A DNA stretch of 64,000 nucleotides, from the NCBI GenBank assembly GCA_040954595.2, contig CM082589.2, forward strand, positions 796,690 to 860,689, given 5' to 3'. The notes below the pieces were generated by a model. That model saw only the letters and a list, made by a program, of their open reading frames with translations. It was not told the DNA's origin and made no database searches. Source of the DNA: Balanoglossus misakiensis (Eukaryota > Animalia > Hemichordata). This document shows positions 9,913-63,000 of this stretch, piece after piece; the first letter of the stretch is position 1, and each line of letters opens with the position of its first letter. The position numbers and the translations under genes are program-made.

Positions 9913-10250
9913 GTAAAATCTTGAAAAATCGACGATTTTTCGACTTTGAGAATTTTCAAAATTTCTTCATTTTTTGAAAAAATCATGGGTTATAGCTCAG
10001 GAAAATCTTCAAAAATCGACAATTTTTCTACTTTGAGAATTTTCAAAATTTCTTCATTTTTTGAAAAAAATCATGGGTTATAGCTCATGAAAATCATCCA
10101 AAAACGACAAATTCTTGACATTGTAAATTGTGACCATTTTGGCATTTTAACGTTATACGCATGGACTATAACTCATACACACTGAAAAAATGACAAATTC
10201 TTGACTTTGTGAATTTTGACCATTTTAGTCATTTTAATGTCATACGCATG
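9913..10250. repeat. Satellite edge: two variant-A monomers followed by two degenerate monomers
   Basis: A-type sequence resumes at ~9913-10085. Then gacaaattcttgac recurs at ~10106 and ~10192 (86 bp apart), with remnants such as catggactataactca. Confidence 0.85.
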
Positions 10251-13300: not shown

Positions 13301-13440
13301 TGCAACACAATCATTGCATCGGAGAAGTACAGATCACCTTGGATGAGTTAGAACTTTGTAAACACACAGTGGGGTGGTATACACTCTTCCCAAGTGATGT
13401 CTACAAATTAGGTTCAAATGACTCCATCAATTCCTTCTAA
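10311..13440 (+). CDS. RIM (RIMS3/4, gamma-RIM-like) C2B-domain protein; possibly 5'-partial
   Basis: In-phase GT-AG exons 10311-10448, 11066-11174, 11642-11736, 11929-12048, 13130-13440. Translation includes LGPGQ, GTIKIGVVMTKGHLEVEVISAKGL, DTYVKTYLVEG..KKKTRVV and LDELELCKHTVGWYTLFP, typical of RIM C2B. The first in-frame ATG (10364) gives 239 aa. AATAAA at 16671 and 16712. Confidence 0.85.
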
Positions 13441-35200: not shown

Positions 35201-37122
35201 TAGCGATAATTCTAGAACTTACCATGTCCACAAGAAGTTTCCATACCGGCTGAAAATAAAAAGAAGAAATATTTACATGAACTGATGGAATAACTAAAGA
35301 GACTGCTGTTTTGATCGAGCTCAGCAACTGCCCGACCAATGTGATTTTGGTGATGTAAGTACTTTGTCATGACAACAAAGATGATGTGAAATGGAACGTC
35401 TGTGAAAAGGAAAATCTGGCCTTTGATGTTTTTAAAGTGCTTGAGGTGATATTTCAATGATTGTTATCAGCACAGTGGACATTGACTGATGCAAAAGGCA
35501 TCTGATCCAATTGAGTGACTTTACCTTGTTCTCTAGTTTCCCCCAAAGGTCCCACAATGCATTGATGATTGCTGCAGTAGCAAGGTGCATGACACCCTTT
35601 TCTGGACCAAGCTGGAAGGAAGAGAACAAGAAACACTTGCATGTATGCTATAATGACTTGAAACATGATCTTTAAGGTCTGAGCCAACAATGGTCCAAGT
35701 TACATGTGTGCAATTTGCAAGTTTCATGACAAATGTGAAAGCAAAAATTACCGTACCCATCTCATCTGTGTGTCACTGGTTAATTTTCTCCAAAATCCAG
35801 CAAAGTCGTCGTAGATATCAGACAACTTCTCGCCGATGACAAGAGAGGCAAGAGCAGAGGCTGCATTAGCAACTGAAAGATAAAAGATAGAAATCAACAA
35901 ACTGGATCAGTGGAGTAAACCTTCAAATTGAAATTTGTCATTATCCAAATATCTTCATGTACTATGATTAATAGATGATTGACCAGCATAAATTGCCTGG
36001 TCATAATCAATTTATAACTATTGAACTCAGAGATTTGATATCCAGGAAACTTACCAATTTGATTGCCTTTGCCTATAGTAAAGGTGAAACCATGGCCTTG
36101 TTTTTCATCTTCTGAATCTGTATGGATAATCACATACACACAGGAGTAGTCCGGATCAACATGCTAAAAATAAAATACAAATTGTAGAAATAAATAGGAT
36201 CATTAGTGTTATGGTAAATTTGAGAAAAAAGACAAAAAGAGTATGGTATGCAGGAAATATCCTATTTTTTATCTCTGTTAATGAAGATAGAAAATGAGGG
36301 TTTCACTTCTGAGTGTACATTACACAAGGGTTTTATTTCTGATAGAAAATGACTTCCTGTTTACCGTTTATTTTCTGTTAAAATTCAACAATTCATGCAT
36401 TCTAACTTACAAATAAAACTGAAGAATTTGTATTATTAGTTGACATTTAGTTCAAAATTAAGAGAAACAAAATTTCTAGTTCAAACTTGAAACTTTAGAA
36501 TTTAATTCTGTTCAGGAGTGTCGCGTTTTTCTTTTCCACATTATATAAGATCCTAAGATGTTTACGTGGAATTTTATCAAAGACTAGTGATGGTGACTCC
36601 AATGAATTGACCCTTACAGTCACGTTCGCAGCACAATCATTACCATGAATTCCGTTTAGTATTCCAAGAAAATGATATGTCTAGACTCATTCAAAAATGA
36701 TACCCTCCAGGTTTTTACCTTGACGTTCTTTGAAGTGTACATTATTCTGCGGAAAAAATAACCTGAATGGTCATACATCTATACCCAAAGTCTCAAGGTG
36801 AAAAGGGCATTTTGAGAAAAATATGAAACAGTAGCACTCGACAACTACTACAGTGACAGTTTATATCCATTTTTATAACGAATATATAGAAGACCAGTAA
36901 CGGACCACGCCCCCCTCCCGGACGTGCCACGCCCCCTTTACGTGTCGTTGGTTCGCTCACGATGCGAAGCTCAGACATCGTGATGGATTTCTTGCCATCT
37001 AGAAAAGACATAACTTCCAATTTTAACATTACCATTGCGTCTGATCCGTGGGCTTCCAAGGAAGTCGGGAATCTCACGTCCTTTACGTCCACCCCAGTCA
37101 CGATCGCACTGTACATGGCCAT
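32269..37122 (-). CDS. ENOSF1: Enolase superfamily member 1 / L-fuconate dehydratase (448 aa)
   Basis: 14 exons: 37122-37033, 36163-36055, 35872-35757, 35611-35525, 35249-35223, 35129-35089, 34996-34926, 34442-34360, 34093-33971, 33747-33613, 33463-33292, 32894-32795, 32681-32600, 32379-32269 (1347 nt). Motifs [62 protein letters not shown] and [12 protein letters not shown]. Confidence 0.97.
33906..33934. repeat. (AGAC)n microsatellite
   Basis: cagacagacagacagacagacagacagac in an ENOSF1 intron. Confidence 0.85.
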
Positions 37123-38698: not shown

Positions 38699-41600
38699 AT
38701 GAACGACAGTGATTGTTCTGCGGTGACAGATGTCAGAGAAGAGAGTGATGTGACAGGAGGCAGCATTGGTGTGAGACAGGTCGTGGGAGAGACAGAAAAA
38801 CCGGACAAGCAAGAGAAAGGCGTTGCACTGACAGATGATGCACAACACAAGGGATCGTCACCACATCAACACAAATATGTTGATTGTCCTAATGATGGCG
38901 AGCATACAGAAAGAATTGAGACATATTCAACCGACAACCGGGACAACGTTCAAAGCCAGCAATCAGCGGATACCGAAGAAGGGATGCTATCAACTACTGA
39001 TCTACAAGAGGACGGGAACGACAGACCAGAGATGCCTTCTCGTCCAAGAGAAACAGAAATGGTACGTCACACATCTTGGTTGATGTTTGATATTCGTGGA
39101 CCAGAAGAGAGCGATTGTACTGGCCAAAAAGATCTGCCTAGCATGGAAAATGACAGTGCGGCATCTGCGGGTATTGATTATGAAAAAGATGGTGGTAGCG
39201 CAGGTGTGATGGCTGATGTGATACAAGATGGCGAGTATACTACAACCCTGTCTGATAAGCGAGAAGATCGAATTCCTCATGAAGAAGGTGGTGAATCTTC
39301 TATCGACAGAAGAGGTAGATATGATGATAGCGAGACTGAAAGTGATGACGATGTTGGCGGTGGTTCTTTCAATGATGAAGTCACTGCCGAACAAGCCGAG
39401 AATGATGGTGACGTCATATCTGATACTAAGGATGAGGATGTGAAGTACTGTAACAGCCTCTTTGTTGAAATCACTTTACCAGAAGACAAGAAAGAGAATG
39501 CAGAAGCCACGATAGGAACATCAGACAACAAAGAAAAGAGTGAGTTGGACAGTGACAACTCGACAAATGATGCGATATTACATCATGGGGATAATGAGAC
39601 AAGTGGGAATGAAGATGAAGATGGACGCTGCTCAGAATCCGCAGCTTGTTATGGACGTGTTACTAAGGAGATAAACACGGAGACAAATTTGTCATCCCTA
39701 GGGATCCAATTAACAGAGGAACGTGAACAAGCAATGGATGAACAATCTGTCTATGGAAATGCAAAAAACAATGGTCGATCCCAATCTTTGGACACCGTTG
39801 GACAACCAAAAAGTGAAGTTAATTTTACTTCAGAAGAAAATTACACCGGCAAAAGATCAAGAAGCGTTCCCTCTGATAAAGATTCTGTGATTTGTCGAAA
39901 GTTATCTCCCAATACAATGGACATCATTACCAATTCTGTCGTGACGAAACCCAGTCAACAGATCAAAAAAGGAAGTGTTCTTTTAGTCGGTACTTCTGAA
40001 GACGAAACCAAGAGTCAGGCGCGTGCTGATGATAGATTTAACAACAGACAAGCGATGACAGGTGAAGATGGAGCAATAGTCGAAGAATATCAAAAGCACT
40101 GGAAAGAAAGTCGGGTAGTGTTAGAGGAAGGAAATGATGAAGCTCAAAACGCACCAGAATATAACGATCAGCACAATGAACGGCAAAAGAGAAAGATGGA
40201 AAGCGCATCAGCTTCGAATTCAAAGTTCTTACTTAAATCCTTTAGCTTTGACGATACATCTACAAATCCTGGCTCGGATAATTATACAACCAATTCACCG
40301 AGGCATGGTCGAGACAAATTAACGTGTGATCCAAACCAAGACGGTAGACCTAAGTCAGCTCGGGGGAGAATGAGACAAGTGTCAGTGGAGGTCGAGCCTA
40401 GAGAAAATGAGACAAGCCTTATCGGACAGGAGAGGACAGACTTCAAGCGGGTTGATGAAGAGCTTGTTGAACATGTTGCAGCCGACCTTCCAGATGAATC
40501 GCTGGAAATTATGTTGCTGGAAATCGAAGAGAATTTCAACTTTACAGCTGACATCGACGAGGTAGATCGCTATGACAACGCACCTAGTCCACACTCAAAA
40601 GAGACAGGTTATCAGCCAACCGATGATGTAAAAAGTCAGCGTTTAACCAGATCAAATATTAAAAATGAAACAGAGGGTGAGATAGAACTCCCTTTGAAAC
40701 AGAAATCACAAGAAAATGAAACATTGAGAGAACCACCTGGGCAGAATATTGTTCTACAAACTTCTAAAGAGAAAATAACAACTCCTGGACAACACTTGAT
40801 GAAAGGTCTTGCTGAAAATCTATTAGAAGAGGATACTTCTGGCCAATCAGTTGAAAGTAAACGAGATGACATCATCACAGAGGAGATGCACATGGCTGGT
40901 GAGGCTTACTACTCAGGAATAATGAAAACTCCTAATGGCAACAATAGAGTGACACCTGAAGATAACGGAGAGGCATTGGAAGAAGGCGAAACCACTGCCC
41001 TCCAAGAGACTGCCAAGGAAGATTCTGAGGAACCTCCTACCAGTTATCAGAAGGAAGTCTCACAGGAAAACAATGGCAGACCGACTTCAGATCAACAGAC
41101 ATCTGATGCAGACAAAACAGAGTATCGTCAAATCCGTGCACGTGAATCTACTGACAGAATCTCCCCAGATTCGGGTAGCAGAAAACTGGATAATTCCTTG
41201 TCGATGGCCGACCTTCAGTCGAATTTGAAGAAAGAGGGGCTGCAAAAGATTGAATCTATCAGAGAAAGGCAACTGACCGAACCAGTCAGAGACAGTGTTA
41301 ATTCTCAAAGAATCAACGAAGGAAAGACGATCACTTCATCTCTTCTGATGCTGCAAGAGGCACAGGCGCGCCGACTCAGTCCTGAAGGAAGCACAGAACC
41401 CGACACAAATCCTGGAGCCAAAAGCTCTGATTCAAAAGTCACACTGCGAAAGTACAGCAGCGTGGCTGGTTCCGGCACAGACAGTAGAAGTCCGGTCGAC
41501 AACGCAACACGTAAGAGAGACAAGAAGCAAAGTTCTCAACGCAAACATGTCTGTATAGACAGTCAGCCAGGACCATCAGGACATCAACAACAAAGATCAG

Positions 41601-41791
41601 GCAAAGTAAGTCCAAACCCTGGGTTTTTACTTCGTGCTAGGGGGTCAAATTACATTATAATAATTGCATTCTGGGTAAAAGGTCGACAACTCACTGCACT
41701 TATTTTTCTTAATCAACAGAAGCGAGCCAACTCCCAGACTGGATATGGCAATGAACCCATGTGTACTTCAAAACTGTGTGTACTGTTTTGA
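38699..41791 (+). CDS. Uncharacterised ~992-aa acidic, likely disordered protein with C-terminal CaaX motif
   Basis: 3.1-kb ORF rich in D/E/S/T. Probable 114-nt intron at 41606-41719 (aaa|gtaagt...tttttcttaatcaacag|). Ends MCTSKLCVLF-stop. Acceptor at 38658-38659, upstream non-coding donor gtaagt at ~37952, AATAAA at ~42197. Confidence 0.8.
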   Translation: MNDSDCSAVTDVREESDVTGGSIGVRQVVGETEKPDKQEKGVALTDDAQHKGSSPHQHKYVDCPNDGEHTERIETYSTDNRDNVQSQQSADTEEGMLSTTDLQEDGNDRPEMPSRPRETEMVRHTSWLMFDIRGPEESDCTGQKDLPSMENDSAASAGIDYEKDGGSAGVMADVIQDGEYTTTLSDKREDRIPHEEGGESSIDRRGRYDDSETESDDDVGGGSFNDEVTAEQAENDGDVISDTKDEDVKYCNSLFVEITLPEDKKENAEATIGTSDNKEKSELDSDNSTNDAILHHGDNETSGNEDEDGRCSESAACYGRVTKEINTETNLSSLGIQLTEEREQAMDEQSVYGNAKNNGRSQSLDTVGQPKSEVNFTSEENYTGKRSRSVPSDKDSVICRKLSPNTMDIITNSVVTKPSQQIKKGSVLLVGTSEDETKSQARADDRFNNRQAMTGEDGAIVEEYQKHWKESRVVLEEGNDEAQNAPEYNDQHNERQKRKMESASASNSKFLLKSFSFDDTSTNPGSDNYTTNSPRHGRDKLTCDPNQDGRPKSARGRMRQVSVEVEPRENETSLIGQERTDFKRVDEELVEHVAADLPDESLEIMLLEIEENFNFTADIDEVDRYDNAPSPHSKETGYQPTDDVKSQRLTRSNIKNETEGEIELPLKQKSQENETLREPPGQNIVLQTSKEKITTPGQHLMKGLAENLLEEDTSGQSVESKRDDIITEEMHMAGEAYYSGIMKTPNGNNRVTPEDNGEALEEGETTALQETAKEDSEEPPTSYQKEVSQENNGRPTSDQQTSDADKTEYRQIRARESTDRISPDSGSRKLDNSLSMADLQSNLKKEGLQKIESIRERQLTEPVRDSVNSQRINEGKTITSSLLMLQEAQARRLSPEGSTEPDTNPGAKSSDSKVTLRKYSSVAGSGTDSRSPVDNATRKRDKKQSSQRKHVCIDSQPGPSGHQQQRSGKVSPNPGFLLRARGSNYIIIIAFWVKGRQLTALIFLNQQKRANSQTGYGNEPMCTSKLCVLF

Positions 41792-44049
41792 ACACTACTT
41801 TGACATCTTAGATGTAGCTACCACTGGCAGCCTAGGGGGAGAAAAGAAGCAAGAAACCAGACCAGACAACAAATTACAAACCACACCTGCTACCCCCCCC
41901 CCAGAAAATGGAACCAACCAGCACATTCCACCACTATTCAGTACCACCTGTACCATTGATTTACATGTATGCTTATATAAGCGAACTCTCAAAAACAATG
42001 TAAAACTCAACAGAAACTTTAAAAACTTTATATTGATGACTGTATTTATTTGTGACGAGTGAAATAGGTTATCCCAGTCACTTTCCTTCATTATATAACA
42101 CTGCATCGGTTCTTAATTTGGATTTTACAATTCTATATTTGTCACGGTTACTTTGTATCGTACATTTGAGTGTATCATTCTTTTAAGTGAACAGTGAATA
42201 AAAAGTATCTTACGTGGTCGAGCGAGCGTGTCCCTTCACTAACCTGCGTTTTAAGGCGAATTAATAATATGTAAGCATTTTGCCAAGCTGTACCTCAGGC
42301 GTATAGGTATATACTAGACCTAGGCTATACAGCCAGCCTTCTGCATTGTTGTTGTTGAAAGCAAATTATCGCCCCGGACGATCATGAACAGTCAAAACCA
42401 ACAAAGACCGATTTCAAACGGCGGGATATCTAAACGTCACTTCTCATACAGATTTAAATGTCTACTACAATGCACTCCCTAGTGAGACTTTCAAATAGAA
42501 TCAACAAGGGCACTCATTTCTTTTTAATTCGACAGTACAATTGTCCATTTCATTTCTATTTTGACTACAACTCGTTGTGAGGCAACTTCTTGTGTTCGTT
42601 TTACTGCTGTGAACCCTTAGAGGCGCCCAAGCTTCAATTGCAAACAGACGGCAATATTATCGGAAAGGTTCGACTTTCTGTTGATCCTTGATCTCATCCA
42701 CGTCTAGTATTTCAGTCTCTCTCCGAGTGGTTGACGTGTGTGACAGAAACTTCTACATCTCTGTGGTCGAAGCTTACTGTTCACAGTTTTGCGCGTGGAC
42801 AACTTCAGTGGACAAAGCGTCAACAACAAACTGTTGCTTTGTAAGTCAGATATTAACTGACTTGTTAGATATTAACATCGAACAGGTGAGTAGAGTTTAG
42901 CTAAAGGTTATATAGATCGGTGAAGTTGGGACAGATTTGTTGCAAAGCATGCATAATAGAGCGTGAAGTGGGAGCTCTAAACAGAAAACGAAATGAATAG
43001 GTGCTATAGGGGGCTGAACACAATGGTCCGAAAAACGTCTAAGTATTAACTGTTAGGGATGGATCATTTGATGTCTGCAAGGCGGGACTGGTGCAAATTA
43101 CCAACTTTGCCCTTTTCCTCACCACCCCCCCCCCCCCGCCATCACCAAATGCATTCCCCCTTAGAGTCCCAATTTAATGTTGACAGACGGAGGTTAGAAG
43201 CAATGCCAGCAGTCAAGGTTCAACGTTTCTGAGGCGTGTTTTATATTTTATTGAATTTATGTCTCCTTCGCGTTGATTTATGGAGGGTCACAGGGCAGTT
43301 ACGACCCGTCGTAGAAAATGCCAGAGTTGAGTTGAGCTTATAAGCGTTCGTCACAATACTACAGGGACAGAAGCAGGCACTAGTCCGTTTCTCTGTGAGC
43401 ACTGTCCGCAGTTGAACCCAAGGTTAGTGTATTTAACGCCCATCCCCATGATACACTCAACAGGTATCTATGGTCTATACTAGTTTAATACTTGGTTAAT
43501 ATTTGAAAACTTCTCATCGAGCTAGACTGGAATTTAGCCATGGGAATGAATGCACAATAGTGGTGGCCAATTCTGCCGGTGGCCATGAAACTATACAGAA
43601 GCACGATGACACGCACATGGTTTCAGGGTATGTCTGGATTGGTTCTTTAGACCAGTGATGAATGGGGGCTCTTCAAATGGTGAAAGTCAAAAACTGCATT
43701 GTGAACCTTGCCAACGCTGATGCAATTTAGCAGCACACGTGCGCCGCATACTTTGCGAACAGTCATGCATGATGTAAGGTCAAAGTGGATGTTATTTTGT
43801 GCCATCTGGTAAACCTCCTTGTTGACTTGTAGTATTGTGGTCAAATGTTCCTTATTCACATTATAATTGGCATTGAAGTCCCATTCTGAAGTCCTACTCA
43901 AGTCTTGACCTTGTTGGTAATGCTTTGCGAGAAAGCGCCCTCGTCGGTGTAACTATATTTGACTTTGTTTTAACATCTTCATTTTTCTCAACATTCTGAT
44001 CTTCTTCAGAGGAAAATGAACGACAGTGAAGAGAGGTAGAAATGGCAAT

Positions 44050-45768
44050 ATGTCAAACGCGTGTACTTCAAGTGTTGCCGATGGGAAGACGGGATTGTCC
44101 ATCAATTCTGTTGGAAATGTCGCCGGGGAGGAAGAACATTCAATGGAAGAGCTTCTGCTTGCTGCAGTAAGAGATGCAGTCAGTGCGCGTGATCTCTTTA
44201 TCCTCGATTTGACCGACAACTTCTTTGAAATTGGTGGGAATCTAGGTAAGCTAGCTTGCTGACTTATAGCAAGACCTTGCAAAGGTCAGGCAAATAGCCA
44301 AGAATGCAAAATAAGTTTGTTTGTCCCCGTAGATATTCTCTGGGAACCATACTTGCCCCTTTAAAGGAAATTTAACAACAACCATGTAAAAGTCGATCAA
44401 AACACCCGCTAACAATTTCTTATAATTCCACTTTTCAGTGACTGCAGCAATAACAGTCAGAAAGCTTCGGGAAACGGGGTATGAAGTCGATTTGGAGTAT
44501 TTCTGCAACGCCAAACATCTCCGCGATGTCGTTGATGGAATGCACCGCAGAAGTTATACTCCTTATGAACTCGTGTACGGAATCCAAACACTTAAAGACT
44601 GTGACGTGACAAGGACGCAGTGTTTATCACGTGACTATCAGCTGATACCGTTCTCTGAAGCCTCTGAGCTTGAACTTGGTCAGGTTTTCGACTTCGCTCA
44701 CAGAATGCTCGTCCAATTCGACCCATTCCTGCTGACGTCTGACATGAACGACACTGACAAACAAGTCTTCATCGCAGCTGCGCTTCGGGAAATCTTCCAT
44801 AATCACGGATGTCAATCACTCTCGTTTTTCATACGTCACAGGAGAAGGAAGGACATTGGTGGCACTGTGTTGTCAGCTGATTTCTGTTTCCAGTGCCACC
44901 CAAGTCACGAAGGAATTCCCTGTCTTCCACTGAACGCCTATCTTCAGACGTTGTTCTCGTTAGAGAAGAAACAGAGAGAGATCCTTCATGTGACGTCACC
45001 TGGGGAGATTGCATGTCAAGTTGTGTCAATCCTAGATTTCTCTGTAGAACCGCCGACCAATCAACTCTTGCTTCAAAGATTACTCATTGCTGGTATGGCG
45101 TTGTTATCACATCACAAATTTAAAGAAAACACCCAAAATTGATTCTTTTCGTATTTTCAGTTTCAGCGATAATTAATAAACTGACATTTGCCATTAATTT
45201 CCTGCTAAGCTACGATTATCTCGCCATGTTTCCTGAAGAGCACACGATTTCAATTTTGTAATCACGTTCAAACACCTGTGACAAATATAAACAAGGATAT
45301 TCCAACTTGCAATAGATATGGGGAACAGTTCCAATACTCTTGTACACTTTAGTACCCTTCTCGTTCCTACTATCTTTGCTTTTACATGATTTTCACGTCT
45401 CCATCACGTTATGAAGTGGCTTGGTCCAGACTTATTATTTTGCATCGATTTTGCCATGTTTCCGTTGAAAATTTATGGCCATGTTTCATACATTTCTTAC
45501 AGAAAGCGTACGGACTGCTCGTCGCCAAGGTTACAAGAAACTCATTGGTTTCCACGGTAACCCCTTGCTTCAGGAATGCGCAACCGAGGCTGGATTCAAG
45601 ACGATAGATGCATCGGAACAGTTGAAAGGACTACAGTTTAAGAAGACGAAACCTTTCGCCAACATTAGACCTGCAAACTATAGGATCGTAGTCATGGCTA
45701 CGGATCTGGTGTCAAAGGTCAAAGTAGACAATAATGAAAACACCAATGAAGTCGTGGAGGCGAGATAG
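44050..45768 (+). CDS. Ebony-like T (carrier) domain + AANAT/GNAT-fold C-terminal domain, no A domain; carrier Ser replaced by Leu (371 aa)
   Basis: Exons 44050-44245, 44439-45092, 45503-45768 (1116 nt, in phase). DNFFEIGGNLVTAAITVRKLRETGYEVDLEYFCNAKHLRDVV resembles the recalled Ebony T domain (NFYELGGNSLNSIFTVTLLREKGY..FIAAKNLGEII). ESVRTARRQGYKKLIGFHGNPLLQECATEAGFKTI resembles the Ebony/AANAT C-terminus. Confidence 0.8.
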
Positions 45769-47198
45769 GCGCAATGTTGCCATGGACACGCGAAACTGTG
45801 GAGTCAGACGTAGCAGTGACGTCATTCTTCAAATGATTTTGAACAACATGTTTTTACAGTATAAACTCAACTCAAAGTTGACGCACTGTACTGAAACAAA
45901 AATAGGTATAGTGTTAATGATGATAAAACTAGCTAGTTGACATTGACGCAATTTTAAGTGGTTGTTTTTTTGCTCCATGTCTCAGTCTTAACAATGCTTA
46001 TTATACACATACGGCCTGTTGATAAACTAACTTAAAACTAGACTTTTTGCCACACTACTGGAAGTCAAACAAAAACCTGAAGTTGAAACATAAATCAGGA
46101 GCTACAACTATTCTGCAAAATGTTCACACCCAACCCACATACTCATAGTTCCCTCGGCTGTCTGAAATATGATTAATAAAGAAATCAACATTGAATATTT
46201 AATTCAATGTGTATTTATTTGAGTGCTGCATGAGGAACTGAGAATGCCATACCTGCAGGTATAAGTTGGACGTTAAGGTATGCGTCGGTACTTTTCGTTT
46301 ATGACACGCGTGAAATATGGACTTGCCTAATTTGTGTTTGAATATATCAGGGCTGTACCTAGCACGTTATACCATCAGGTCTGACCCTAACTAAATACTC
46401 AATGCCCGCATATGTGCACAGGGCAGAACCCCCGAGGCAAAAGTTCATCATGATCCACGCATAATCACAAAACACTCCGGCCGTTATACATGTACACTGT
46501 CTATACTCACGAACACAAATTAGACTTCCACTGGTCGACGCGAGATCGCCAACATTCTGCTTGACAACAGTGGATGAAGTGGTCGCCAAACACTCTTGGA
46601 TCGTGTTGGTAGCCTTTGATGGTTGCAGTACAACGAACTTTACAGGTCAGTGGGGGATTTGTGAAGTTAATTCTGTTTGTCGATAAACAAAGTTCCGCTA
46701 TTTCCAGCAACATACCAAATTGTACGTCCATACGCAAAGGCCGATTAACACAAACAGCTAGACCGTTTCCCCATAAATATATCCTCGGGGTTAGCAAGTC
46801 TCGTTTGACACACAAACCACTTTCAAAGCAACTTGGGATCTTCTTTGAACACACAAACCAACCCGTTAAATTACTGTGCGATGCAATCAAAAAGTAGACC
46901 ACCTGATTGTGTATAACAAAATAACCAGACGAATGAGCGTAGCACTACCATGAAAAAAGGGGCCAATCGTCCACCGTAATACAAAATTTACGAACTCGGG
47001 TATTCGTAGCTGAAACATTGGTTCTTTTGAAGTAAACAAACGCCCATGTTTTGGACTTTACTCCATTGAAGTGTGAAATCTTGCATAACAGAGTTTGACA
47101 TCTCTTCGTTTTTCAACGCTCATTAAACACCTAGAATGTTGACCACCTGAAGCATCGCAGTGTTTGCTGTTTTCAATTCACGTCACTCCACTCCCTGA

Positions 47199-47271
47199 TA
47201 TAAAAAGCTCGGTAACAATTCGATTACGCTATTCACAAGATAATTACATTAGTCTGTAGTGGACAACACAG
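47199..47271 (+). promoter_or_regulatory. TATA box and probable non-coding first exon of the second Ebony-like gene
   Basis: TATAAAAA at 47199, donor ag|gtaag at 47272, and a pyrimidine-rich acceptor (ctctctctctgtag) at 47758 ahead of ATG 47830. Confidence 0.5.
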
Positions 47272-47829
47272 GTAAGACACACGATTATTATATCGAATTA
47301 AGTTTGGATATACTGTTTGGTTCCTTACAACTTAAAAATTTCATTATTCACTGCATAATTTATAAACTCAGGCGATAATTTTCAAGAGTTTCCAGTTCAA
47401 AGATCACTACAGAGGTTCCTTCTTCAAATTTGTCACATTAATCACCGCAGTGCGTGCGGAACTGTTACATCATTCAAATTCCTTGAATGCGAAATACATG
47501 TAACACATTACACTCAATGAATTTAATTAGCTTGTCCTGTTTTTGGCCCGAAAAACATTTGCGATTACTTGTGTTTTCAAATGTAGAAACCGATCACTTA
47601 TTTCGGGTGTCATTGGCCATGATTACATAGACCTTGTATTGTAAACATCGGACTGGTTTATTGGTTGACATATTGGCACATGTTTGACATATTGATGGTT
47701 GCAAATAGAGTATATACGTGGTATTTTGACAAACTTCATGTTTGCTCTCTCTCTGTAGTTCGGTGTCGAGTCCGGTGTACGAAACCTGTCGCTTGTGAAG
47801 ACTGACACGTATGCGAAGTCGACGTGAAA

Positions 47830-50800
47830 ATGGAAGAAAATGACAATCTCAACGAAACCAGCAGCTGTGTGGGGACAGACTCGACCTACTCACAAGACGA
47901 TCTGACCACCACGAAAGAAAACAGAGAAGGTGACAAGAATGGAGACGAAAAAGTCGACTGCGTCTTAAGGGCCATATCGGACGCAATCGCTCTGCCAGTC
48001 GATGTCATTGACCTCGGAGATGATTTCTTTGAGATTGGCGGAAATTCAGGTAAGAACGAAAGAAGAATCTTCAAGAAACAAACGTCACAGCATTTACTCA
48101 AATATGGATATTTCTATCAGTGTGAGGCAGTGGTTAAATATCAAAACATATATTTCCGTCGTTATTAATTTGATTTTGATGTATTTATGTAGTATTTGAC
48201 AGTCATGTGCGACGATAAGATATGATAGAAAATGTACACGTATTGTAAATATGTTGTTCGTCTTGATTTTTGACATGTGCGTGTCACACGTTTGCTTTCT
48301 CTTAAAAATAACGATAAAATCTCAATTGCTGATTTCGTAGTCTCTACTTTTCAACTTTGAAAACACGAGTTTTGCATATTTTTGTTCCTTTTCAGCAACG
48401 AGCGTTGCAGTGGTACAAAGCCTGATCAAAAGTGGATATGACGTGACACTGAAAGAAATCTACAGCGCAGAATTGATAGAAGATATCGTCAACTTTGCCA
48501 GAAAAGGGACTTTTCCATCAAAAGCATTAGTCGACGGACCCGAAAGACGCCATCTTGATTTCAACGAAGGCTCGTACTGTATGGATGATTATGAAACAAT
48601 TCCCTTGGACGAGGCTACAAGCGAGGAGATACAGTTGGCGATAGAAATCTGTAAAGATTCCATATCGAGGGGTGACTTTCTTGGCGATTGTGTGGAAATG
48701 GACCCAGGTCATAAACTTCTTGTAATCACAGAATTCATTGATTCATTATTTCTTCAAGAAACCTGCGTCAAGTTGTCTTTCTTGCTGAAAAGCAGGCAAG
48801 GCGGGCAAATAGCCGGCATATCAATCAACGTTGATTTTTACAGCGAAGACATTCCAAGGTTCAATGAACTGGATTCTATTCCAAACCTGGAAGCTAAAAT
48901 TGAAGCGTATATGGTGTTAAGATCAGACGCAAAGAAGGCGTTAGGAGTGAACACCCCCGGAGAGTGGCTATTCCAAATAGTATCGTTTGTAAACTTTGAT
49001 GAAGATGAGAGAAACAAGGCTTCTGTTTTAAGATTCATAGAAATTGGTAAGTTGTGAGAGGGAGCTAATTATGATGATGGAACTTTTTGTAAAATTCGGG
49101 GAAAATCAATACTACAACAGGCTTTTCTTGAACTGCTACATACAAGACGATAGCCTATGATAACTTAAAGCCCCAGTAACTGATGCATTAAAGGGGCAAT
49201 TATCAATCCCTGGTTCCCCTTTATGCCACAGAGAAACTGTCCCTGGCGAAGAAACACAAAATGCGGGGCGTGGCTGGACTCTACACCAATGTCTTCTCCC
49301 GATGGATAGCGGAAGAAGTTGGACTTGAAATCGTTCTACAATCGCAAATCTTCAGAGATCAGTATTTCAAGTACATCACTATGTCGGATAAAAACGATTG
49401 GAAGGTCTATTTGATGGTTAAGGAACTTGACCATGCAGGTAGGATGAACAAATGAATGATTTTGAAATGACACTTTTAAATGTCAATTATTTTACCCAAA
49501 ATTTGGTATGACGCGATGTACATGTATGTCTTTTTTTTTGCAGAAAACCAAGAAGGGAGCAGAGTCGGTCGAGCAATGGTGCCGGAAGTGACGGGATTAC
49601 AGATGGACCGAACCTCCTCCGAACCTGCAATCTGTGCTACGACTGGATGTGAAACTACGGAAGGTAAGTTAAAGAGTCGACCTTTCCCTAGGATAAGTCT
49701 AAAGTGCACTGTACCAACCGTTATGACAAATACTATTGAAGGAAGGACTATGGCCCATGACTATAACTGCAGCGCAGTGTAAGGGACAGTTGAAATTGGC
49801 CGCGTACTCGTGACCTAATCGTGACCGAGAAAGCTCGTTTTACGCTTTATGTAAATTAATCATAATTGTCCCACTCGACATTAACATGTCTAGAATCGAT
49901 TTCTTTTTGTTTCCAGTGTTTTTCTTTTGTGAAATGAACAATGAGACAAAACACGTGTTGTTCCACCAACAATACACGGTGTGGATATCTGAACTGTGAA
50001 TGTGTTCAACCTGTTCTATTTTCAGAGAATCTAGTACAGGCGGTGAGACAGCTGCGAAGAAGTGGTCTCGATCTGAGAGTAACCGACGTCGTGGAAAGGT
50101 CTTTGCAGAGCGTTGCTGACTCGTGTGAAGTCATAGAACCATCGCTGGTAACGATAGCAACGGGAATGCGAGCTTGTACCACAGCGACCGAATCAGGCGA
50201 TGTGATGTCGGAGAAACTGTCGGATAGCTACGATGTGGTTCTGCTCTCTGACGCTACGGAGAAGGAGCTATCGGATGCCCTTGAACTCTGCGTCGAACAC
50301 ATGTTGGAAAGCGATCCCGTGGTCTGTTGCCTGAAATTGGAGCTCGATGACAAGCGTACCTTTGCGACGGCGGCGGTCAGAGAAATTCTGTACAACGACA
50401 CCTGTCTGCCGGCGTCTCTTTTGCTCCGCGACAAAAAGACGGGTCGGATTGCAGCGGCCATGTTGTGTGGTGATTTCTTCTACCAGTGCCATGCCAGTTA
50501 CGAGGGACTCGCAAACGTTCCGTGGAAGAGTTATGTTAACACATTGGTTACCATGGAAATGTACTATAAGAATGTTCTACATGTCACCATGCCTGGTGCT
50601 TGGTCATGTCAGGTGATGTCAGCCGTGAGTTCTGAGGCCGATTTGAAGACACGAACCAATATGAGGACATTTCTTGTGACGGGTAGGTGCCAACAAAAAT
50701 TGAGGGGTCTATACCCGTGGCAGATTGGACATTCCTCAATGTGTTACAAAATCCATACCCTTGTTGTACACCCTTCTTTCGCTGAAGTTGGCGAAAGAAA

Positions 50801-51104
50801 TTGGCCAATCAGAAAAAAGTCATGCTAAATCACCTTTGGTCAGTCATAGCCTGACAATAATACGAATTTCATTTTCTTGTATATTTTCATTACAGAGAGC
50901 ATGCGAATGGCAAGAAATAACGGATACCAGCATATGATATGTTTCCATAGCAACCTGATTTGCCAAGAGCTGTCTGCTGAAGCTGGAATGCATATCATCG
51001 GAACGTCCTGTCGAATTCGAAACATCAAATATAAAGAAGAACGCCATTTTGAGAAGATATATCCACAAGACGCACAGATCATGGTGATGGTTAGGGACTT
51101 TTGA
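47830..51104 (+). CDS. Double-module Ebony-like protein: T(GGNS)-GNAT-linker-partial T-GNAT, no A domain (687 aa)
   Basis: Exons 47830-48049, 48396-49046, 49232-49438, 49544-49663, 50026-50682, 50896-51104 (2064 nt, all phase-1 junctions). First module has DDFFEIGGNSATSVAVVQSLIKSGY and LSFLLKSRQGGQIAGISINVDF. Second module starts ENLVQAVRQLRRSGL and ends ESMRMARNNGYQHMICFHSNLICQ. AATAAA at ~51127. Could instead be two genes (stop at 49455 if the 49439 donor is unused). Confidence 0.75.
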
Positions 51105-51757
51105 AAAGAGATATTACAACAACAAAAATAAAAGAAGTTGTCAACTTGGAAGCAAGGTCATGTTCGTGTATATCACTGAGGAGCTACTACTCATTAGAAA
51201 TGCCTGAATATTCGTAAATCATTTAAAATTTCTTACCGTTATTTAGACACACTCGTAACTATGTAAGTTAACTCGCCATTGCTACACTAGTCAATATGTC
51301 ACTTTCATATATTTATTTATTTACTTGAGTTCATTAATATTCACTTTTATACACATTTACTTGTATGAATGTCGACCAAGCCATTTGGCTAAATTTGTTA
51401 TGTATTTATTTATACCTATCTAGTATCGCTTTTGTTTATTAATAATGGCGTTTCAACCAAGACGAGAAGAACCTTGGAAGTGATTTTGTTTTCATCTCTC
51501 TTTGTACTTTTTGTTTCGTGTTTAAGTCTAATTCTGATTAAAAACAACTTTGTCCAAAGCAAACTGGCTGCGCTTGTCGCACTTATTTCACAACTAACTA
51601 TCTATTATGTGGAAAAAATTAAAACGCTCAACTGGGATGACATAAACGCTGGTAAGAAAAAACAGCAGGCTTATTTACTTTGGCCGTTGGTGGAGTTTTC
51701 ACCAAGACCCACAATCCCTTTCGACGTGAATCCATTTCATCATAGACTAAAAACAAA

Positions 51758-53296
51758 ATGGCGTCCATGCAGGTAAGTGACATTGTTGTCATAGGAATTT
51801 TTCCTGCAGATCTTTCTCTCAGGCGATGATCTGAGTGATTTCGACAAGGAAATCGTGGGTTAGTTCTAACCCAGTGGTCATAGAGTAGAAATTTCCCCGT
51901 GACGGCAAGTTGCGCCTCCATTGATGATAAACATCGTTTGCGTACAATACATGATGTACACAACACAAACTTCATAATGATGGGATATACATGTATTTGA
52001 CTCTTATTTTGTTATCCAGAGGCGACTGCAGAAAGAGCTGATGCATCTACAAAAAGACCCTCCTCCGGGAGTTACAGTAAATGTAGAAAGTACATCGTCA
52101 TCAATAAATCAGTAAGTTTCAGGCGAAGTGCATACCCTTTTCTCACTTCCCTAAAGTTAGGTGGCTTATATAGTTGGCAACCCTGTGTTTATTAAAGGGC
52201 TGTATGCCTTATGTAATGAACAAACTGTAAACAAGCCCAACACTTGCTTGATCGCATACGTGAACATTTGTGCGCCTGAACCATAACCTACACGTTGGAG
52301 GGGGGGGGGGATGCCCTGGGTAGTAAATGTCCAGGGGTAACGTCGCGCTACCAGCTAGTGTTCTATATTTAATTATAATGACAAATGTAAAACCAGTTTG
52401 CAAACAACTCTATAAATATAACTTTGATTGATTTGCAATGCACTTACCGTAACGGTAGATGTCCTTTTTTCATTTCAGGTGGCATGTTGATCTAGATGGG
52501 GCACCAGGTTCATTATACGAAGGCGAAAAATATCAATTAAGGTTTAAATTTGGTCCAAGGTATCCCTTTGATTCGCCAGAAGTAAGTACCTCTATCAAAA
52601 TTATGTGATAATTATCAGACCTTTGGAGGAAACAAATGTGATTATGATGAAGACTATGTTCAGTCAAAAGTGTCATGTGATGATATTAGAAGTAATTGTT
52701 TTGTAACATGACCAATGTGTAACACCAAACTTATATCTATTTTGTGATTTCAGGTTATATTTATAGGTAGCAACATTCCAGTTCATCCACACGTCTATAG
52801 CAATGGTCATATATGTCTATCAATACTTACAGAAGACTGGTCACCAGCGCTCTCCGTACAGTCTGTGTGCCTTAGTATAGTTAGTATGCTCAGTAGCTGT
52901 AAAGAAAAGGTAAGACTGAGTTACATTTACGACAAAACACATATACGCATGCACATTTTTGTGACAGTGTGAGCTCATGAACACACACACACCATGGCTC
53001 ATTCAATACTGTACACAGAACCTTCATCACAAAGCCCTAAGTAACTAAAACACTGTCATAAATTGAGTGCTCATTTTCCTCTTTCAGAAACGTCCTCCAG
53101 ATAATACATTTTATGTCAGAACCTGTAGTAAAAGTCCTAAGAAGACGAAATGGTGGTATCATGGTAAGGCATAGTCTTGTTGCTTATAAAAGAATATGTG
53201 GTAGAATTTCTGAGACAGTATCATATACCTCATAGCTTGTATGACTGTTTCTAATGTTGTATACTATGTTTATTCTTTGCAGATGACAAAGTATAG
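51758..53296 (+). CDS. UBE2W: Ubiquitin-conjugating enzyme E2 W (151 aa)
   Basis: Exons 51758-51772, 52020-52111, 52479-52581, 52754-52909, 53088-53163, 53283-53296 (456 nt). Reads [50 protein letters not shown] and KTKWWYHDD. Confidence 0.97.
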
Positions 53297-57803: not shown

Positions 57804-60023
57804 TCAACAGAGAGAATCCGACTGATTCGTTTGTGGCTGGGGATCTGTGGTGTCCCTTGGTTCTGTTACAGTAAGATCATCACCATTTTGGGCCAAAGTG
57901 GCCTCTTTCATATTATTGAGTTCAATCTCATCCCTTGGTGTCTCCGCATTCGTGTCCTCGTCTGGTTCTGGCTCTTTGCTCGGTGATTCTATAAATTTGA
58001 CCGGTTGGGCTTGTGGGTTTGAAGCTGTCTTTGGACTTGTGGCTTTTAAAGGTTCTTGGTTTGTGCTATCTTGTTCTGGAGTTGTAAATTCTTCCTTACC
58101 CTGCTTGTCTTCTGTATCTATGCTGTCTTTCTTTTGTTTTTTCAATCCTTTGTCTCTCTTGGACGTCGGACTCTGCGTTTCAGACGCACTGTCACTAGAC
58201 TGGGAATCTTTTCGTCTCCCTGGTTGGTCTTTAGAGCGAAAGTTTGCAAATCTCTTAACTGCAGCAAGACTGGTGCTTGCTCCTAAGATTGCCGGCAGTT
58301 TGGGTCTCTTGAATCTGCCTTTCAGAAGAGGTTTCTTGACTATTTTTTGTGGCGTTTTGCCTCCATCAGAATCTGTCGATGAAACGCTCAGTTGATCGTC
58401 CTCCACTGGTTTTGTTTCTTCCTCTCCGATGAGAGGATCAAATTCTGCTTCATCTGCAGGGTCGTCCGCATTTTGTCCTTTCTCTTGTGGCGGCGCTCGT
58501 TTCCATTTAGTCGTAAATCCATCGTCTAGTTGCTGTACAATAATATCGTCTTCTTTTCTCTGACCGTTGGGTCCGTTTGTCATTGGAGGGACGTTCTCTC
58601 CATCAGCGGCTGGGTCATCTTCATTCAGTTGTGTTTCCCCGGCAACAGACGAGTTGTGAGGAACTTCATCCTCATCTGTGATTGTAATGTCTGGAGCATC
58701 CACCACTGAACTTGTGGGTTTTTTCTTGGGTTCCTTAAAACCTGCCTCTAATCCACAACTTGCATAGCTGTCAACACTTTTGTGACTTTGAGAATCATCT
58801 CCGGAAAGTGTGCGAGTACGTCCTGCTTGTTTTGCCTGGCCATCTTTGTCTCGTCTGCCAAGACCCGAATGAGTGGCCAATACACCCATTCGACCGATTG
58901 CATGGTGTGTTTTGGGGAGTTCAACTTGATCAAGCGAGTCGAGAAAGACCTCTGATGATAAACTGTTTGTGCTCTGTCGTGTATGGTCTACATACGGTGC
59001 AGATGCGCAGCGATCTCGATGACAGTTTTGAGTGCCCAGACGTTCAGACGATCGGTAGTGTGGGCCACAATCGGTCGGTAGACTGTGGATCCGATTTGCA
59101 TCAGTGTGAGGATTCTCCAAAGATATTGAAGGATTGCTGCCGTGATTCAAAGACAGATTTGACAAACTGTGTCTGTGTACATTCGGCGATTGATTGTTTT
59201 TATCCACCAAAACATCAATCATCTCCAAGCAAGCATCTCGTACATTCATGCTTATTAAACTTCCCTCTTGTTTGGCTTTCTCCAGAAGTTCTCGTCGCTT
59301 CATTGCTTTTTCGTGTCGTTTCTGCTCCCGATAATACTCAGAGAAGTTGTTAACGATGATAGGAATTGGCAGGGCTATCACCAGCACACCGCAAATACAA
59401 CAAACAGCACCAATAAGTTTTCCCAGTAAAGTTTCTGGATAAATATCGCCATAGCCAACTGTCGTCATGGTGATGGCTGCCCACCAGAACGCAACAGGTA
59501 TACTAACAAAGAGAGTATTCGGATCGTCTTTCTCAGCGAAATATGCTAAACTAGAGAATAACATCACTCCTATGGCTATAAACAGTGTCAGTAGACCAAG
59601 CTCTTTGTAACTCCTTTTTAAGGTGTACCCAAGTGCTTGAAGCCCCGTTGAATGTCTTGCAAGTTTTAAAATCCGAAGAATTCTCATGATCCTGAATATC
59701 TGTACCACACGGCGCACATTTTGAAACTGCATATAACTTTCGTTGGATTCCGTCAGGAACAGTGTCACATAGAAAGGTAATATTGCTATGAGGTCTATGA
59801 CGTTGAGAGGAGCTTTGAAAAATTTCCATTTGTTGGGAGCGGATATCAGTCGTAGCACATACTCCAATGTAAACCAGGCTATACAGACCATCTCTACAAG
59901 TTTGAGATCTGCATTATCACCTGGTTGTCCAAATTTATCCTGTTCTTGAAGAGACGGTAAAGTGTTCAGAGATAATGCTATGGTAGACAGTACGATAAAC
60001 AGAATTGAGAGGATCGCTACCAC
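57804..60023 (-). CDS. KCNB1: Voltage-gated K+ channel Kv2/Shab (KCNB-like), last coding exon (S1-S6 and C-terminus); T1-domain exon lies outside the window
   Basis: Acceptor tctgtcttttcag|GTG at 60023. S4 [31 protein letters not shown], pore [12 protein letters not shown] and S6 [16 protein letters not shown] are diagnostic of Kv2. The symbol denotes the family; probably co-orthologous to KCNB1/KCNB2. Confidence 0.95.
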
Positions 60024-63000
60024 CTGAAAAAGACAGAAACGAAACAATGTTAAGTCAGGATAATTACGAACAATTTATGTTCACTGCTCGAACACTACTG
60101 CGCCCTCTGTAGCTGACTTTTCATGCTTCCGCACAATCGAGGGTCTGATTATGTATAGCATGCTTAACAATATGTAAATTAATAATGTATCTCTATTATC
60201 AGCAGATTTCCATGTTAAAATCACGTATAAATTAAACAGTTTTACTAAAATAAAATCAAAATTATCATTAACAGAATCAAGTATTATGTTAAAACGGTAA
60301 CCATACACCGTATATTCCATGAATATTTTTAAAATGAAACTGAGAAAAATCAGCTAGCTGTATAGTGGTTACCATGGTATTAGGTATCAGTGAGATAGAA
60401 TCACGAAGTCGTGATGTTAATATTTTGTGTTTCTGATCTCATTAAAAATTTATTATAGCTGCATTTGAATATTCACAAAGCCACTGATTCTCATTTTACA
60501 AGATTAGGAACAACGAAACGACATCCCAGAATGGGCACAGATCAGCTGAAATAACAGCCAATGAACAGACCAGATGAAATGATTGATCAGAACAGATCAA
60601 ACAGAAATGATACAAAATGAATCTAGCCTAATGAAATGATCACAGGAAATAATAAGCAATGAATAGATCGATATTGAAACGATAGATCAAATGAAATGAT
60701 CCCCAGGGAATATATATACTGTATAGCTCAGCTGCAATGACGATAGTCTTGCTCATAAATGGACAATTTATCTGAGACTTGACAGTTACAAGGTCATGAC
60801 TAAAGTGACCCTCTTTGTATCCACAACTATACACACATGAAGTCAGCATCTGAGTCAGATGCTACCAGATGCTGTTGTGATGAAACTATGAGTAGTGAAT
60901 GTAGATTTTCAAAACATACATTTCTTTGACCCTGTATGAGTGTTCAAAAATTACTTCCATTCACAAATTGTAATGTTTCACACAAAATCCTGCAGGGTAC
61001 AAGGAAGATGCAAGCCAGTTTACAAAAAAATGAAATCAATACCTATCTCTGTATTTATTTTTCAAATGAAGAAAAAAAAACCTTCACAGGACACCATTAC
61101 AGGGTTACTTTGAAATTCAGTCTTTTTTTCTGTCTCTGGGGTAGGTGCAAGCATTTACATTAATGATGAAATGGCAAAGAAATTACCTACATCACCATTA
61201 CCATGGTAATGGTTACCATGGCAACAGAGGATTATTTGCATCATCACTGACCTGTTTCTTTTTTTACAGATCTTGGGAGTAAGACATCTCAAGGAAACGT
61301 GATACTGTTATCTTGAAATCACAGTTCTAGCTTACAGAGTGAAAGGCAGATAGTGATTCATCTTCAAGACGTCTTAAAATTATCATCCTGATCACAAGCT
61401 CACTAAAAATACCGTACTGCTTTTAACTGACAAATTACTAGAAAACTAGAACTGTAATTCCCCTCCTTTTGACCTTGGAATCAACGGTCGCATGAGATAC
61501 ACTTTTTATTAAATATCTGTACAATTTCCATTCCTTTGCTTTGCTTCACAGCACATAATTCACCTCCAGAATAGTGATTTGAAATATTAAAATTATCACA
61601 CTGAGCTCATGAACTGATATTATGAGAGATTTCAATAGAAAAAGACAAGAATTAATGATGGAAAGCATTGAAATATATTTTTCAGCTTTGCTTTTTTATT
61701 ATCTGTTTGATGGCATTTTATGAGCTATGCAATCCATCAAGCTTCTTCAACATAAGACCAATCATAGAATATCAAAACAGCTGTCAATTATCTTTGTTCA
61801 ATCTCTATTTGTCCACAAAATATTTACATATCACTCACTTTTTCATTATGCTAAAAATATCAATTACACAGGTTGTGTGTGCTTAGAGTGAAGTGATTTG
61901 CGGCGCTGAAAATACATCATGCCTGTTTTGAGTTTCTAGATTTGAGTTCTAGGTAATATTGACAGATTTGGTACAAGCTGTAAATTTGTGCAGAATTTGA
62001 ATGACAGATTTAGGAACTACAATGATTCAGAAAATTAAGAGTACAGGGATGTGACCTCGTTTAAGGCCATCAAAATCATTTACTGCAGTTGTTTACGGTA
62101 TGGTTGCTATGACAATCCCCAAGACCGCACAAACATCATGGAATTTAATTTATCTGAGAGCAGTTCACTTGATTAGCTCTCTTCCTATTGCATGCCCATG
62201 GTCCAATTGCACAGACTTGTCTGGTTGACACACTTCTACACAGTGAAGGACAAAAACATGACAGTTCCTTCTGTTGGAACAAATATGGGAGGTCAGTGTA
62301 ACATTGAATGATACCTTCCAAGGAAGTACCAGGCAGAAAGATGTAGTTACTATGGTGTATGCAAATCTGTGTGGTCATTCAAACTGCACTGATCAAATTG
62401 CACAGCAATGGGTGGACAACTTTTCACCCACAATGCAATTTCACATCCTGAGAGCTGATTGTTCTGTCTTCAGTAAACATTCAATGCACAAGTATCATCC
62501 TTTGTTCTAATTTATTTGATCTGACAAATCATTCATTTGTGAAAACTGTAAACAAATCAGGCTTTTAAGGCAGTCTGTATCTGACTACATTTTTCTTTCA
62601 AATGTAGAATGAGACATCTTTTTGCCCTGCAGACTTCAAGTGCTGTTAATTTATCAGTCTTTTTCAGCATGTCAGATGCAATACTAGTTTAACTCTGATC
62701 TTTCCATTCAGCTGGAACTCTCTATTTGAACTATTGCTCTCTCCTCACTGATGGTTATCAACATATTGCATTTAAACTTTTAAGACAACTATCTCGTCAG
62801 AGAGGGTGGCTGTGATCTGAATGTCTGAATGTCAAATATTTGCTTGTTTCAAATGTGACTATACATTCCTCCAGTTACAGGAATTAACCTTTTAAAACAC
62901 TGATTCACACAGCCACTCTTTGCTATCATCTTATATGCTTCATCTTTTCAAGGCTTTTAATAGTGATGTTCTGTTGTAAAACCAAGCTGAAGCTTTCACT

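Follow-up and report, generated by a model that had tools for sequence, protein, structure and literature searches.

Can the second half of an animal nonribosomal peptide synthetase (NRPS) persist as a gene of its own when the adenylation (A) domain is gone, and what would then load its carrier? This question is raised by two genes in a 64-kb stretch of the acorn worm Balanoglossus misakiensis (assembly GCA_040954595.2, contig CM082589.2, positions 796,690 to 860,689, forward strand), the whole of which is called the window here. Both could be modelled as intact, intron-bearing plus-strand genes that are open from ATG to stop. Gene A encodes a carrier (T) domain and one domain with the fold of the GCN5-related N-acetyltransferases (GNAT). 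Gene B encodes two carrier and GNAT-fold modules, B1 and B2, on one chain.

Drosophila Ebony and the flatworm Sm-NRPS are beta-alanyl-amine synthetases with the order A, T and C-terminal domain (CTD; structure 6DYM). Ebony has been described as a tridomain of A, peptidyl carrier protein (PCP) and arylalkylamine N-acetyltransferase (AANAT) (PMC10510592; papers are cited by PubMed Central number, each for the part of its text that was available). Like these enzymes, the window genes have an NRPS carrier followed directly by an AANAT-fold domain; unlike them, they have no A domain. The genes resemble the second half-reaction of Ebony but stand outside the A-T-CTD family because the A domain is absent from the polypeptide. 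The reading that we favour, at a probability of a little under one half (about 0.47), is a split, amide-forming system derived from Ebony. A separate ATP-using enzyme would charge the first carrier of gene B (B-T1), and an Ebony-type domain would join the acid to an amine.

Structure of the two genes

The features of the two genes are as follows.

44050-44245, 44439-45092, 45503-45768, + strand: coding exons of gene A, 371 amino acids (aa)
44010..44245, + strand: first coding exon of gene A; acceptor 44009/44010, in-frame stop 44017-44019, ATG 44050; first half of the T domain
44439..45092, + strand: exon 2 of gene A; second half of T and most of the GNAT-fold domain, Ebony-type on the models
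45503..45768, + strand: last coding exon of gene A; end of the GNAT-fold domain and stop
46175..46180, + strand: AATAAA, probable poly(A) signal of gene A; pattern only
47830-48049, 48396-49046, 49232-49438, 49544-49663, 50026-50682, 50896-51104, + strand: coding exons of gene B, 687 aa
47199..47271, + strand: TATA box (47199-47205), and what is probably the non-coding first exon of gene B, with a GTAAGA donor at 47272; pattern only
47759..48049, + strand: first coding exon of gene B; acceptor 47758/47759, in-frame stop 47803-47805, ATG 47830; first half of T1
48396..49046, + strand: exon of gene B; second half of T1 and most of GNAT-fold domain 1, with acidic residue D167
49232..49438, + strand: exon of gene B; end of GNAT-fold domain 1, spliced onto module 2
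49544..49663, + strand: exon of gene B; first half of the degenerate carrier T2, without GGxS
50026..50682, + strand: exon of gene B; second half of T2 and most of GNAT-fold domain 2, with D496 and the invariant C526, C554 and C594
50896..51104, + strand: last coding exon of gene B, including the stop
51127..51132, + strand: AATAAA, probable poly(A) signal of gene B; pattern only

The calls of the TATA box, the leader-exon donor and the AATAAA signals are sequence patterns, not transcript evidence. All coding introns are GT-AG and in phase 1 (7/7), and each of the three long exons was open in 0/2000 base shuffles. The original prediction, made from the letters of the window, had described three homologous modules that share their intron positions, one of them just after a GGNx motif. 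Modules A, B1 and B2 are indeed homologous (BLASTP, 22-31% identity, E 1e-48 to 3e-22) and have both intron positions in common. The motif is another matter, as module B2 has an intron at the equivalent place but no GGNx beside it.

Two other models of gene B were rejected. A three-gene reading would end B1 at the stop at 49455, but 49439 is a good donor, the modules have no AATAAA between them, and in 3/3 other species the orthologues are fusions. A five-exon model that omitted 49232-49438 was superseded by the six-exon model. Out-of-frame ATGs lie upstream of both starts, at 44016 and 44042 in gene A and at 47811 in gene B. Their frames (44016-44170 and 47811-47843, + strand) just precede or overlap the main start, and these ATGs may dampen translation of both genes.

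Relatives in acorn worms

An exhaustive phmmer search with exon 2 of gene A against 1.84 billion representatives (E<=0.001) returned six matches, with no prokaryotic protein among them. All are 'uncharacterized' acorn-worm proteins of the same architecture without an A domain, from Ptychodera flava, Glandiceps talaboti and Saccoglossus kowalevskii. Each species has an A-type protein (366-377 aa) and a fused B-type protein (684-708 aa); the B-type orthologues P0004, P0005 and P0008 are two-module fusions too. The matches suggest that the A- and B-type genes are linked in Ptychodera and Glandiceps, and the several accessions with identical proteins suggest transcript-backed isoforms. Two A-type copies of Ptychodera flava, P0001 and P0007, are 99% identical and represent a recent duplication or an assembly duplicate.

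PP-binding is the only relevant Pfam family in the orthologues. It scores 40-54 bits, above the cut-off, in the three B orthologues, and Pfam detects the second carrier in the B-type protein of Saccoglossus. The half T1 domain on the first coding exon of gene B gave a PP-binding match below the cut-off (E 0.0064).

The GNAT-fold domains of the window and of Ptychodera are 60-71% identical. An unrooted tree of 12 family domains, from which P0007 (as a 99% copy of P0001) and P0006 (a fragment of P0008) were excluded, has three groups with 4/4 species in each and support of 91 (A), 100 (B1) and 96 (B2). Saccoglossus and Ptychodera diverged more than 370 million years (Myr) ago (PMC4729200). Open frames and the three module types are kept across this split in 4/4 species compared. 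Pattern scans of prokaryotic genomes and metagenomes, which have low sensitivity, gave no relative. Word-indexed homologue searches gave none for exon B5 and elsewhere only P0005, or P0005 and P0004 among longer proteins; these searches are insensitive and are weak evidence on range.

Fold of the GNAT domains and absence of an A domain

A profile search with the three B orthologues matched carrier domains of NRPSs (best E 1e-7) as well as 6DYM, the Ebony CTD (E 2.1e-4). With B domain 1 alone the profile had two matches at E<=10, 6DYM at 6e-5 and, at 1.5, an AANAT-like protein of a mosquito; the alignment with Ebony was near gap-free through the last 60 residues. Single-exon phmmer searches of the PDB gave nothing relevant. 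Models of two orthologues gave 6DYM as the top Foldseek match in both cases (E 5.4e-8 and 2.3e-8). With VIA-align, the orthologue of B domain 1 matched 6DYM at Z 22.6 and a root-mean-square deviation (rmsd) of 2.7 A over 209 residues (next row 21.0), and the orthologue of gene A at Z 23.3 and 2.4 A over 213/213 residues (next row 21.6). The Atlas structure search had an Ebony cluster in its first row, aligned over T1 and domain 1 (residues 41-352), with a low template modelling (TM) score of 0.34 by the whole query. On these models the GNAT-fold domain is Ebony-type; module 1 of gene B is the most Ebony-like of the three. The carrier and Ebony-CTD/AANAT identities that had been predicted are thus borne out, the first by Pfam on the orthologues and the second by three rankings (profile, Foldseek and VIA-align) that put 6DYM first.

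The prediction also held that no A domain could be spliced on through the acceptors before the two ATGs, and the same conclusion was reached here from several sides. In-frame stops lie between the acceptor and the ATG of gene A (44017-44019) and of gene B (47803-47805). A six-frame scan of the entire window matched 0/6 A-domain patterns. Upstream of the two genes, 0/55 stop-free plus-strand stretches of at least 25 aa match Pfam at E<=0.05. The upstream neighbour of gene A ends about 2 kb before it and has a stop of its own, as well as an AATAAA at 42197. Among the orthologues, Pfam finds PP-binding and no AMP-binding in the seven distinct full-length proteins scanned, and RefSeq models from three other acorn-worm species independently lack the A domain.

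Proposed mechanism

The favoured system would have arisen before harrimaniids and ptychoderids split, when the T-CTD half of an Ebony/Sm-NRPS gene was duplicated. An animal phosphopantetheinyl transferase (PPTase) would modify Ser73 of gene B. B-T1 would then receive its acyl group in trans, either from an Ebony-type A domain or from an acyl-CoA-synthetase-like ligase encoded elsewhere (CoA, coenzyme A), and B domain 1 is the predicted catalyst of amide formation. B domain 2 in cis and the gene A domain in trans might serve as further amine-selecting domains fed from B-T1, with the Ser-less carriers perhaps retained as docking or structural parts. The acylation in trans and the feeding of further domains are the weakest steps.

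Loading by a PPTase directly from acyl-CoA, an alternative route in the original prediction, was rejected. This transfer occurs once per apo-protein, so it cannot sustain catalytic turnover. Loading in trans has a candidate loader and an animal precedent. The Sm-NRPS-like protein XP_006818424.1 of Saccoglossus is listed with an Ebony-clade A domain (PMC10531068, Table S5), and in C. elegans the unlinked ligase PKAL-1 loads a carrier in trans (PMC8363725). Dependence on a carrier is supported by the absence of the CoA P-loop from 12/12 family domains, since the same loss is a mark of SbzI and FeeM, two GNATs that depend on a carrier (PMC11685415).

Carrier domains and a possible binding role

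The carriers differ in their attachment sites. B-T1 has an intact GGNS in 4/4 species, with Ser73 encoded in the window by the TCA codon 48046-48048. In gene A the phosphopantetheine Ser position is a CTA (Leu) codon at 44242-44244. Leu is also found in Ptychodera (GGNL) and is therefore unlikely to be a sequencing error; Saccoglossus has Lys (GGTK), and only Glandiceps has Ser. B-T2 has the canonical GGxS in 0/4 species, with a DGTS variant in Saccoglossus. The original prediction that all of the T-CTD proteins are loaded consequently has to be narrowed to module 1 of gene B. Mean identity within groups, given as T/GNAT-fold, stands at 53/52% in A, 48/40.5% in B1 and 31/55% in B2. By these values B-T2 is diverging fast, and the Ser-less T of gene A is being kept.

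Several observations weigh against a split synthetase. An intact phosphopantetheine motif is found in only one of the three carriers. The GNAT-fold domains behind dead carriers are more conserved (52% and 55%) than the domain behind the live one (40.5%), which is not predicted by a simple model in which module 1 does the work, and in gene A the T domain, though Ser-less, equals its partner in conservation (53% against 52%), which points to a non-carrier role. No loader gene was found within the 64-kb window by the motif scan and by Pfam on the upstream stretches. The A- and B2-type profiles have no Ebony match at E<=10. The AlphaFold2 models are of the Ptychodera orthologues rather than of the spliced proteins of the window, were built from 8-9 aligned rows and have a mean predicted local distance difference test score (pLDDT) of 73.1 and 66.5. 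Finally, Ebony leads the free-standing, CoA-using AANAT-type enzymes by just 1.6-1.7 Z.

The proteins may instead be Ebony-derived pseudoenzymes, which bind biogenic amines, or bind and regulate a full-length Ebony-type synthetase or a PPTase, with Ser-less carriers as decoys or docking parts. Two of the three carriers without an intact motif fit this role, as does the strong conservation of the Ser-less T of gene A (74% identity, window vs Ptychodera). The Ser is absent in two ways, with GGNL in two species and GGTK in Saccoglossus, and the domain persists; the acidic amine-binding position is also kept (12/12). However, a pure binder would have no need of the Ser of B-T1, whose GGNS is present in 4/4 species, and B domain 1 retains the N-x-D and E-x-E residues that match Ebony. 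We regard a mostly non-catalytic role of this kind as unlikely.

Residue signatures and the acyl donor

All 12 family domains have an acidic residue after helix 1 (D or E; D160 in exon 2 of gene A) at the position of the DEPLN motif's Glu, the role of which in insect AANAT is treated in PMC6070697. Of the motif, the A and B2 domains (8/8) retain D/E-P, and the B1 domains (4/4) only the acidic residue. The first aligned residues set this residue opposite Ebony residue 696, which we take to be the amine-binding Glu, provided that there is no gap; the register comes from range starts and not from a residue-level alignment. The CoA P-loop, R/Q-x-x-G-x-G/A after strand 4, is absent from every domain, the lone match to the pattern lying near a C-terminus. 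C190, Q217, C218, S221, E223, E241 and C258 (gene A numbering) are invariant in the A and B2 domains (8/8) and not in B1; the three cysteines all lie in exon 2 of gene A. In the alignment C258 falls opposite a His on Ebony's central strand. This His and an Asn, likewise on the central strands, align with Phe/Tyr in B1 and with Cys/His in A and B2. Because these two positions differ from Ebony, the product is probably not standard beta-alanyl-dopamine or -histamine.

These signatures bear on a reading in which no A domain is needed at all. The cysteine-bearing A/B2 domain would move an acyl group to T1 from acyl-CoA or from a fatty acid synthase (FAS) or polyketide synthase (PKS) carrier, and domain 1 would condense it with an amine. 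The A/B2-specific invariants with their three cysteines (8/8), the place of C258 opposite the central-strand His, the superior conservation of the A/B2 domains and the fusion of the two domain types on one chain in 4/4 species are all in keeping with such self-loading. However, neither A nor B2 has a CoA P-loop, gene A carries the A/B2 domain type without a live carrier in 3/4 species, and the cysteines could be structural. Self-loading seems to us distinctly unlikely.

Ordinary acyl-CoA-dependent arylalkylamine or polyamine N-acyltransferases with vestigial carriers would account for other features. CoA-using AANATs and the viral polyamine acetyltransferase 3QB8 provide the next-best folds (Z 19-21.6), 3QB8 is the best GNAT match of the A/B2 profiles (E 0.0066), and the D/E-P of the A and B2 domains is like the insect DEPLN. 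Against this, the P-loop is missing from 12/12 domains, the Ser of B-T1 is intact, and the carriers of A and B1 are conserved at 48-53%. We find this explanation very doubtful. A last alternative takes these exons for decaying fragments, or for the 3' portion of full-length A-T-CTD genes with A exons farther upstream. It is scarcely tenable: the 5' ends were placed from sequence patterns, but stops precede both ATGs in frame, the upstream stretches are without Pfam matches, another gene ends about 2 kb 5' of gene A with a stop and an AATAAA of its own, gene B has its own TATA box and leader donor, RefSeq models of three other species have the same start without an A domain, and the frames have stayed intact for more than 370 Myr.

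Comparison with known systems

The split synthetase that we favour differs from Ebony and Sm-NRPS in more than the missing A domain. The window family has three module types that arose by duplication, a fusion of two modules, and two of three carriers without the intact motif. The insect enzymes Dm Dat (3TE4), AgmNAT (5K9N) and AANATL5b (4FD4) and the PBCV-1 protein A654L (3QB8) have the same fold (Z 17-21.6) and an acidic residue at the DEPLN position. Insect-type AANAT, AgmNAT and polyamine enzymes are free-standing and use acyl-CoA, whereas the window domains have no P-loop and are fused to carriers.

Among bacteria, SbzI/SbzG and FeeM/FeeL form an amide from a carrier-tethered acyl group that is loaded by a separate enzyme, and their P-loop is replaced (PMC11685415). 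The window genes share the loss of the P-loop and have the carrier fused; use of the carrier is a prediction. SbzI (Z 14.6-14.9) and FeeM (14.3) match the models of the window family much more weakly than Ebony does, and the window genes, unlike bacterial carrier-GNATs, are intron-containing animal genes. The Atlas feature neighbours include bacterial clusters with PP-binding and GNAT (scores 0.78-0.83), which are leads only. The nemamide pathway of C. elegans is similar in that an animal carrier is loaded by an unlinked acyl-CoA-synthetase-like ligase, PKAL-1 (PMC8363725), while for the window carrier such loading is only proposed. The nemamide carrier is one part of a large assembly line of the PKS/NRPS kind, which has no GNAT domain of the Ebony type.

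No published description of these genes turned up in literature searches, nor in the hemichordate genome paper (text plus two supplements); this coverage excludes papers under subscription and the supplements of bioRxiv preprints. In the literature found, the animal enzymes of the Ebony type that have been characterised are single A-T-CTD chains. An animal NRPS survey (PMC10531068) would be blind to genes of this kind because, in its available text, it started from A domains. Ebony-type products are cuticle precursors, transmitter-recycling forms or reproductive signals, and further monoamine conjugates are expected in animals (PMC10723454). A suggested tie to halogenated acorn-worm metabolites received no support from a literature search and is not claimed.

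Loss of the A domain more than 370 Myr ago, with three module types kept in deuterostomes, implies either loading in trans between separate animal proteins or a new, non-catalytic role. One may speculate further that the genes form a dissociated, type-II-like nonribosomal amide synthase of Ebony parts. Three GNAT-fold domains, each tuned differently, would draw in cis and in trans on a single holo-carrier, and the cysteine-bearing type would load or relay acyl groups from acyl-thioesters, with no dedicated A domain needed; the products might be lineage-specific acyl-amine signals or defence metabolites. We would not bet on this extension, which is offered as an unlikely one. The small, expressible proteins could be used to study recognition between Ebony-type domains and carriers and to search for undescribed hemichordate amine conjugates.

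Other features of the window

A satellite array with an 87-bp unit occupies 1-10108 (116 copies, 98% matches) and is the source of long spurious open reading frames. A C2-domain exon lies at 13060-13440 (+). The first exon of a divergently transcribed gene at 37033-37119 (-) is short and has no Pfam match; we take it to resemble ENOSF1/L-fuconate dehydratase. The upstream neighbour of gene A (38699-41791, +) has an acidic, low-complexity exon of about 970 codons with no Pfam match. Splicing (donor 41606, acceptor 41719) apparently joins this exon to a short final one that ends in the CaaX-like CVLF, and the product is possibly a prenylated scaffold protein. Downstream, a ubiquitin-conjugating enzyme gene (51759-53290, +; Pfam UQ_con), presumably UBE2W-like, has its ATG only about 650 bases past the stop of gene B. 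An exon of a voltage-gated potassium channel (57804-60074, -; Pfam Ion_trans), which we assume to be Kv2/Shab-like, lies further downstream.

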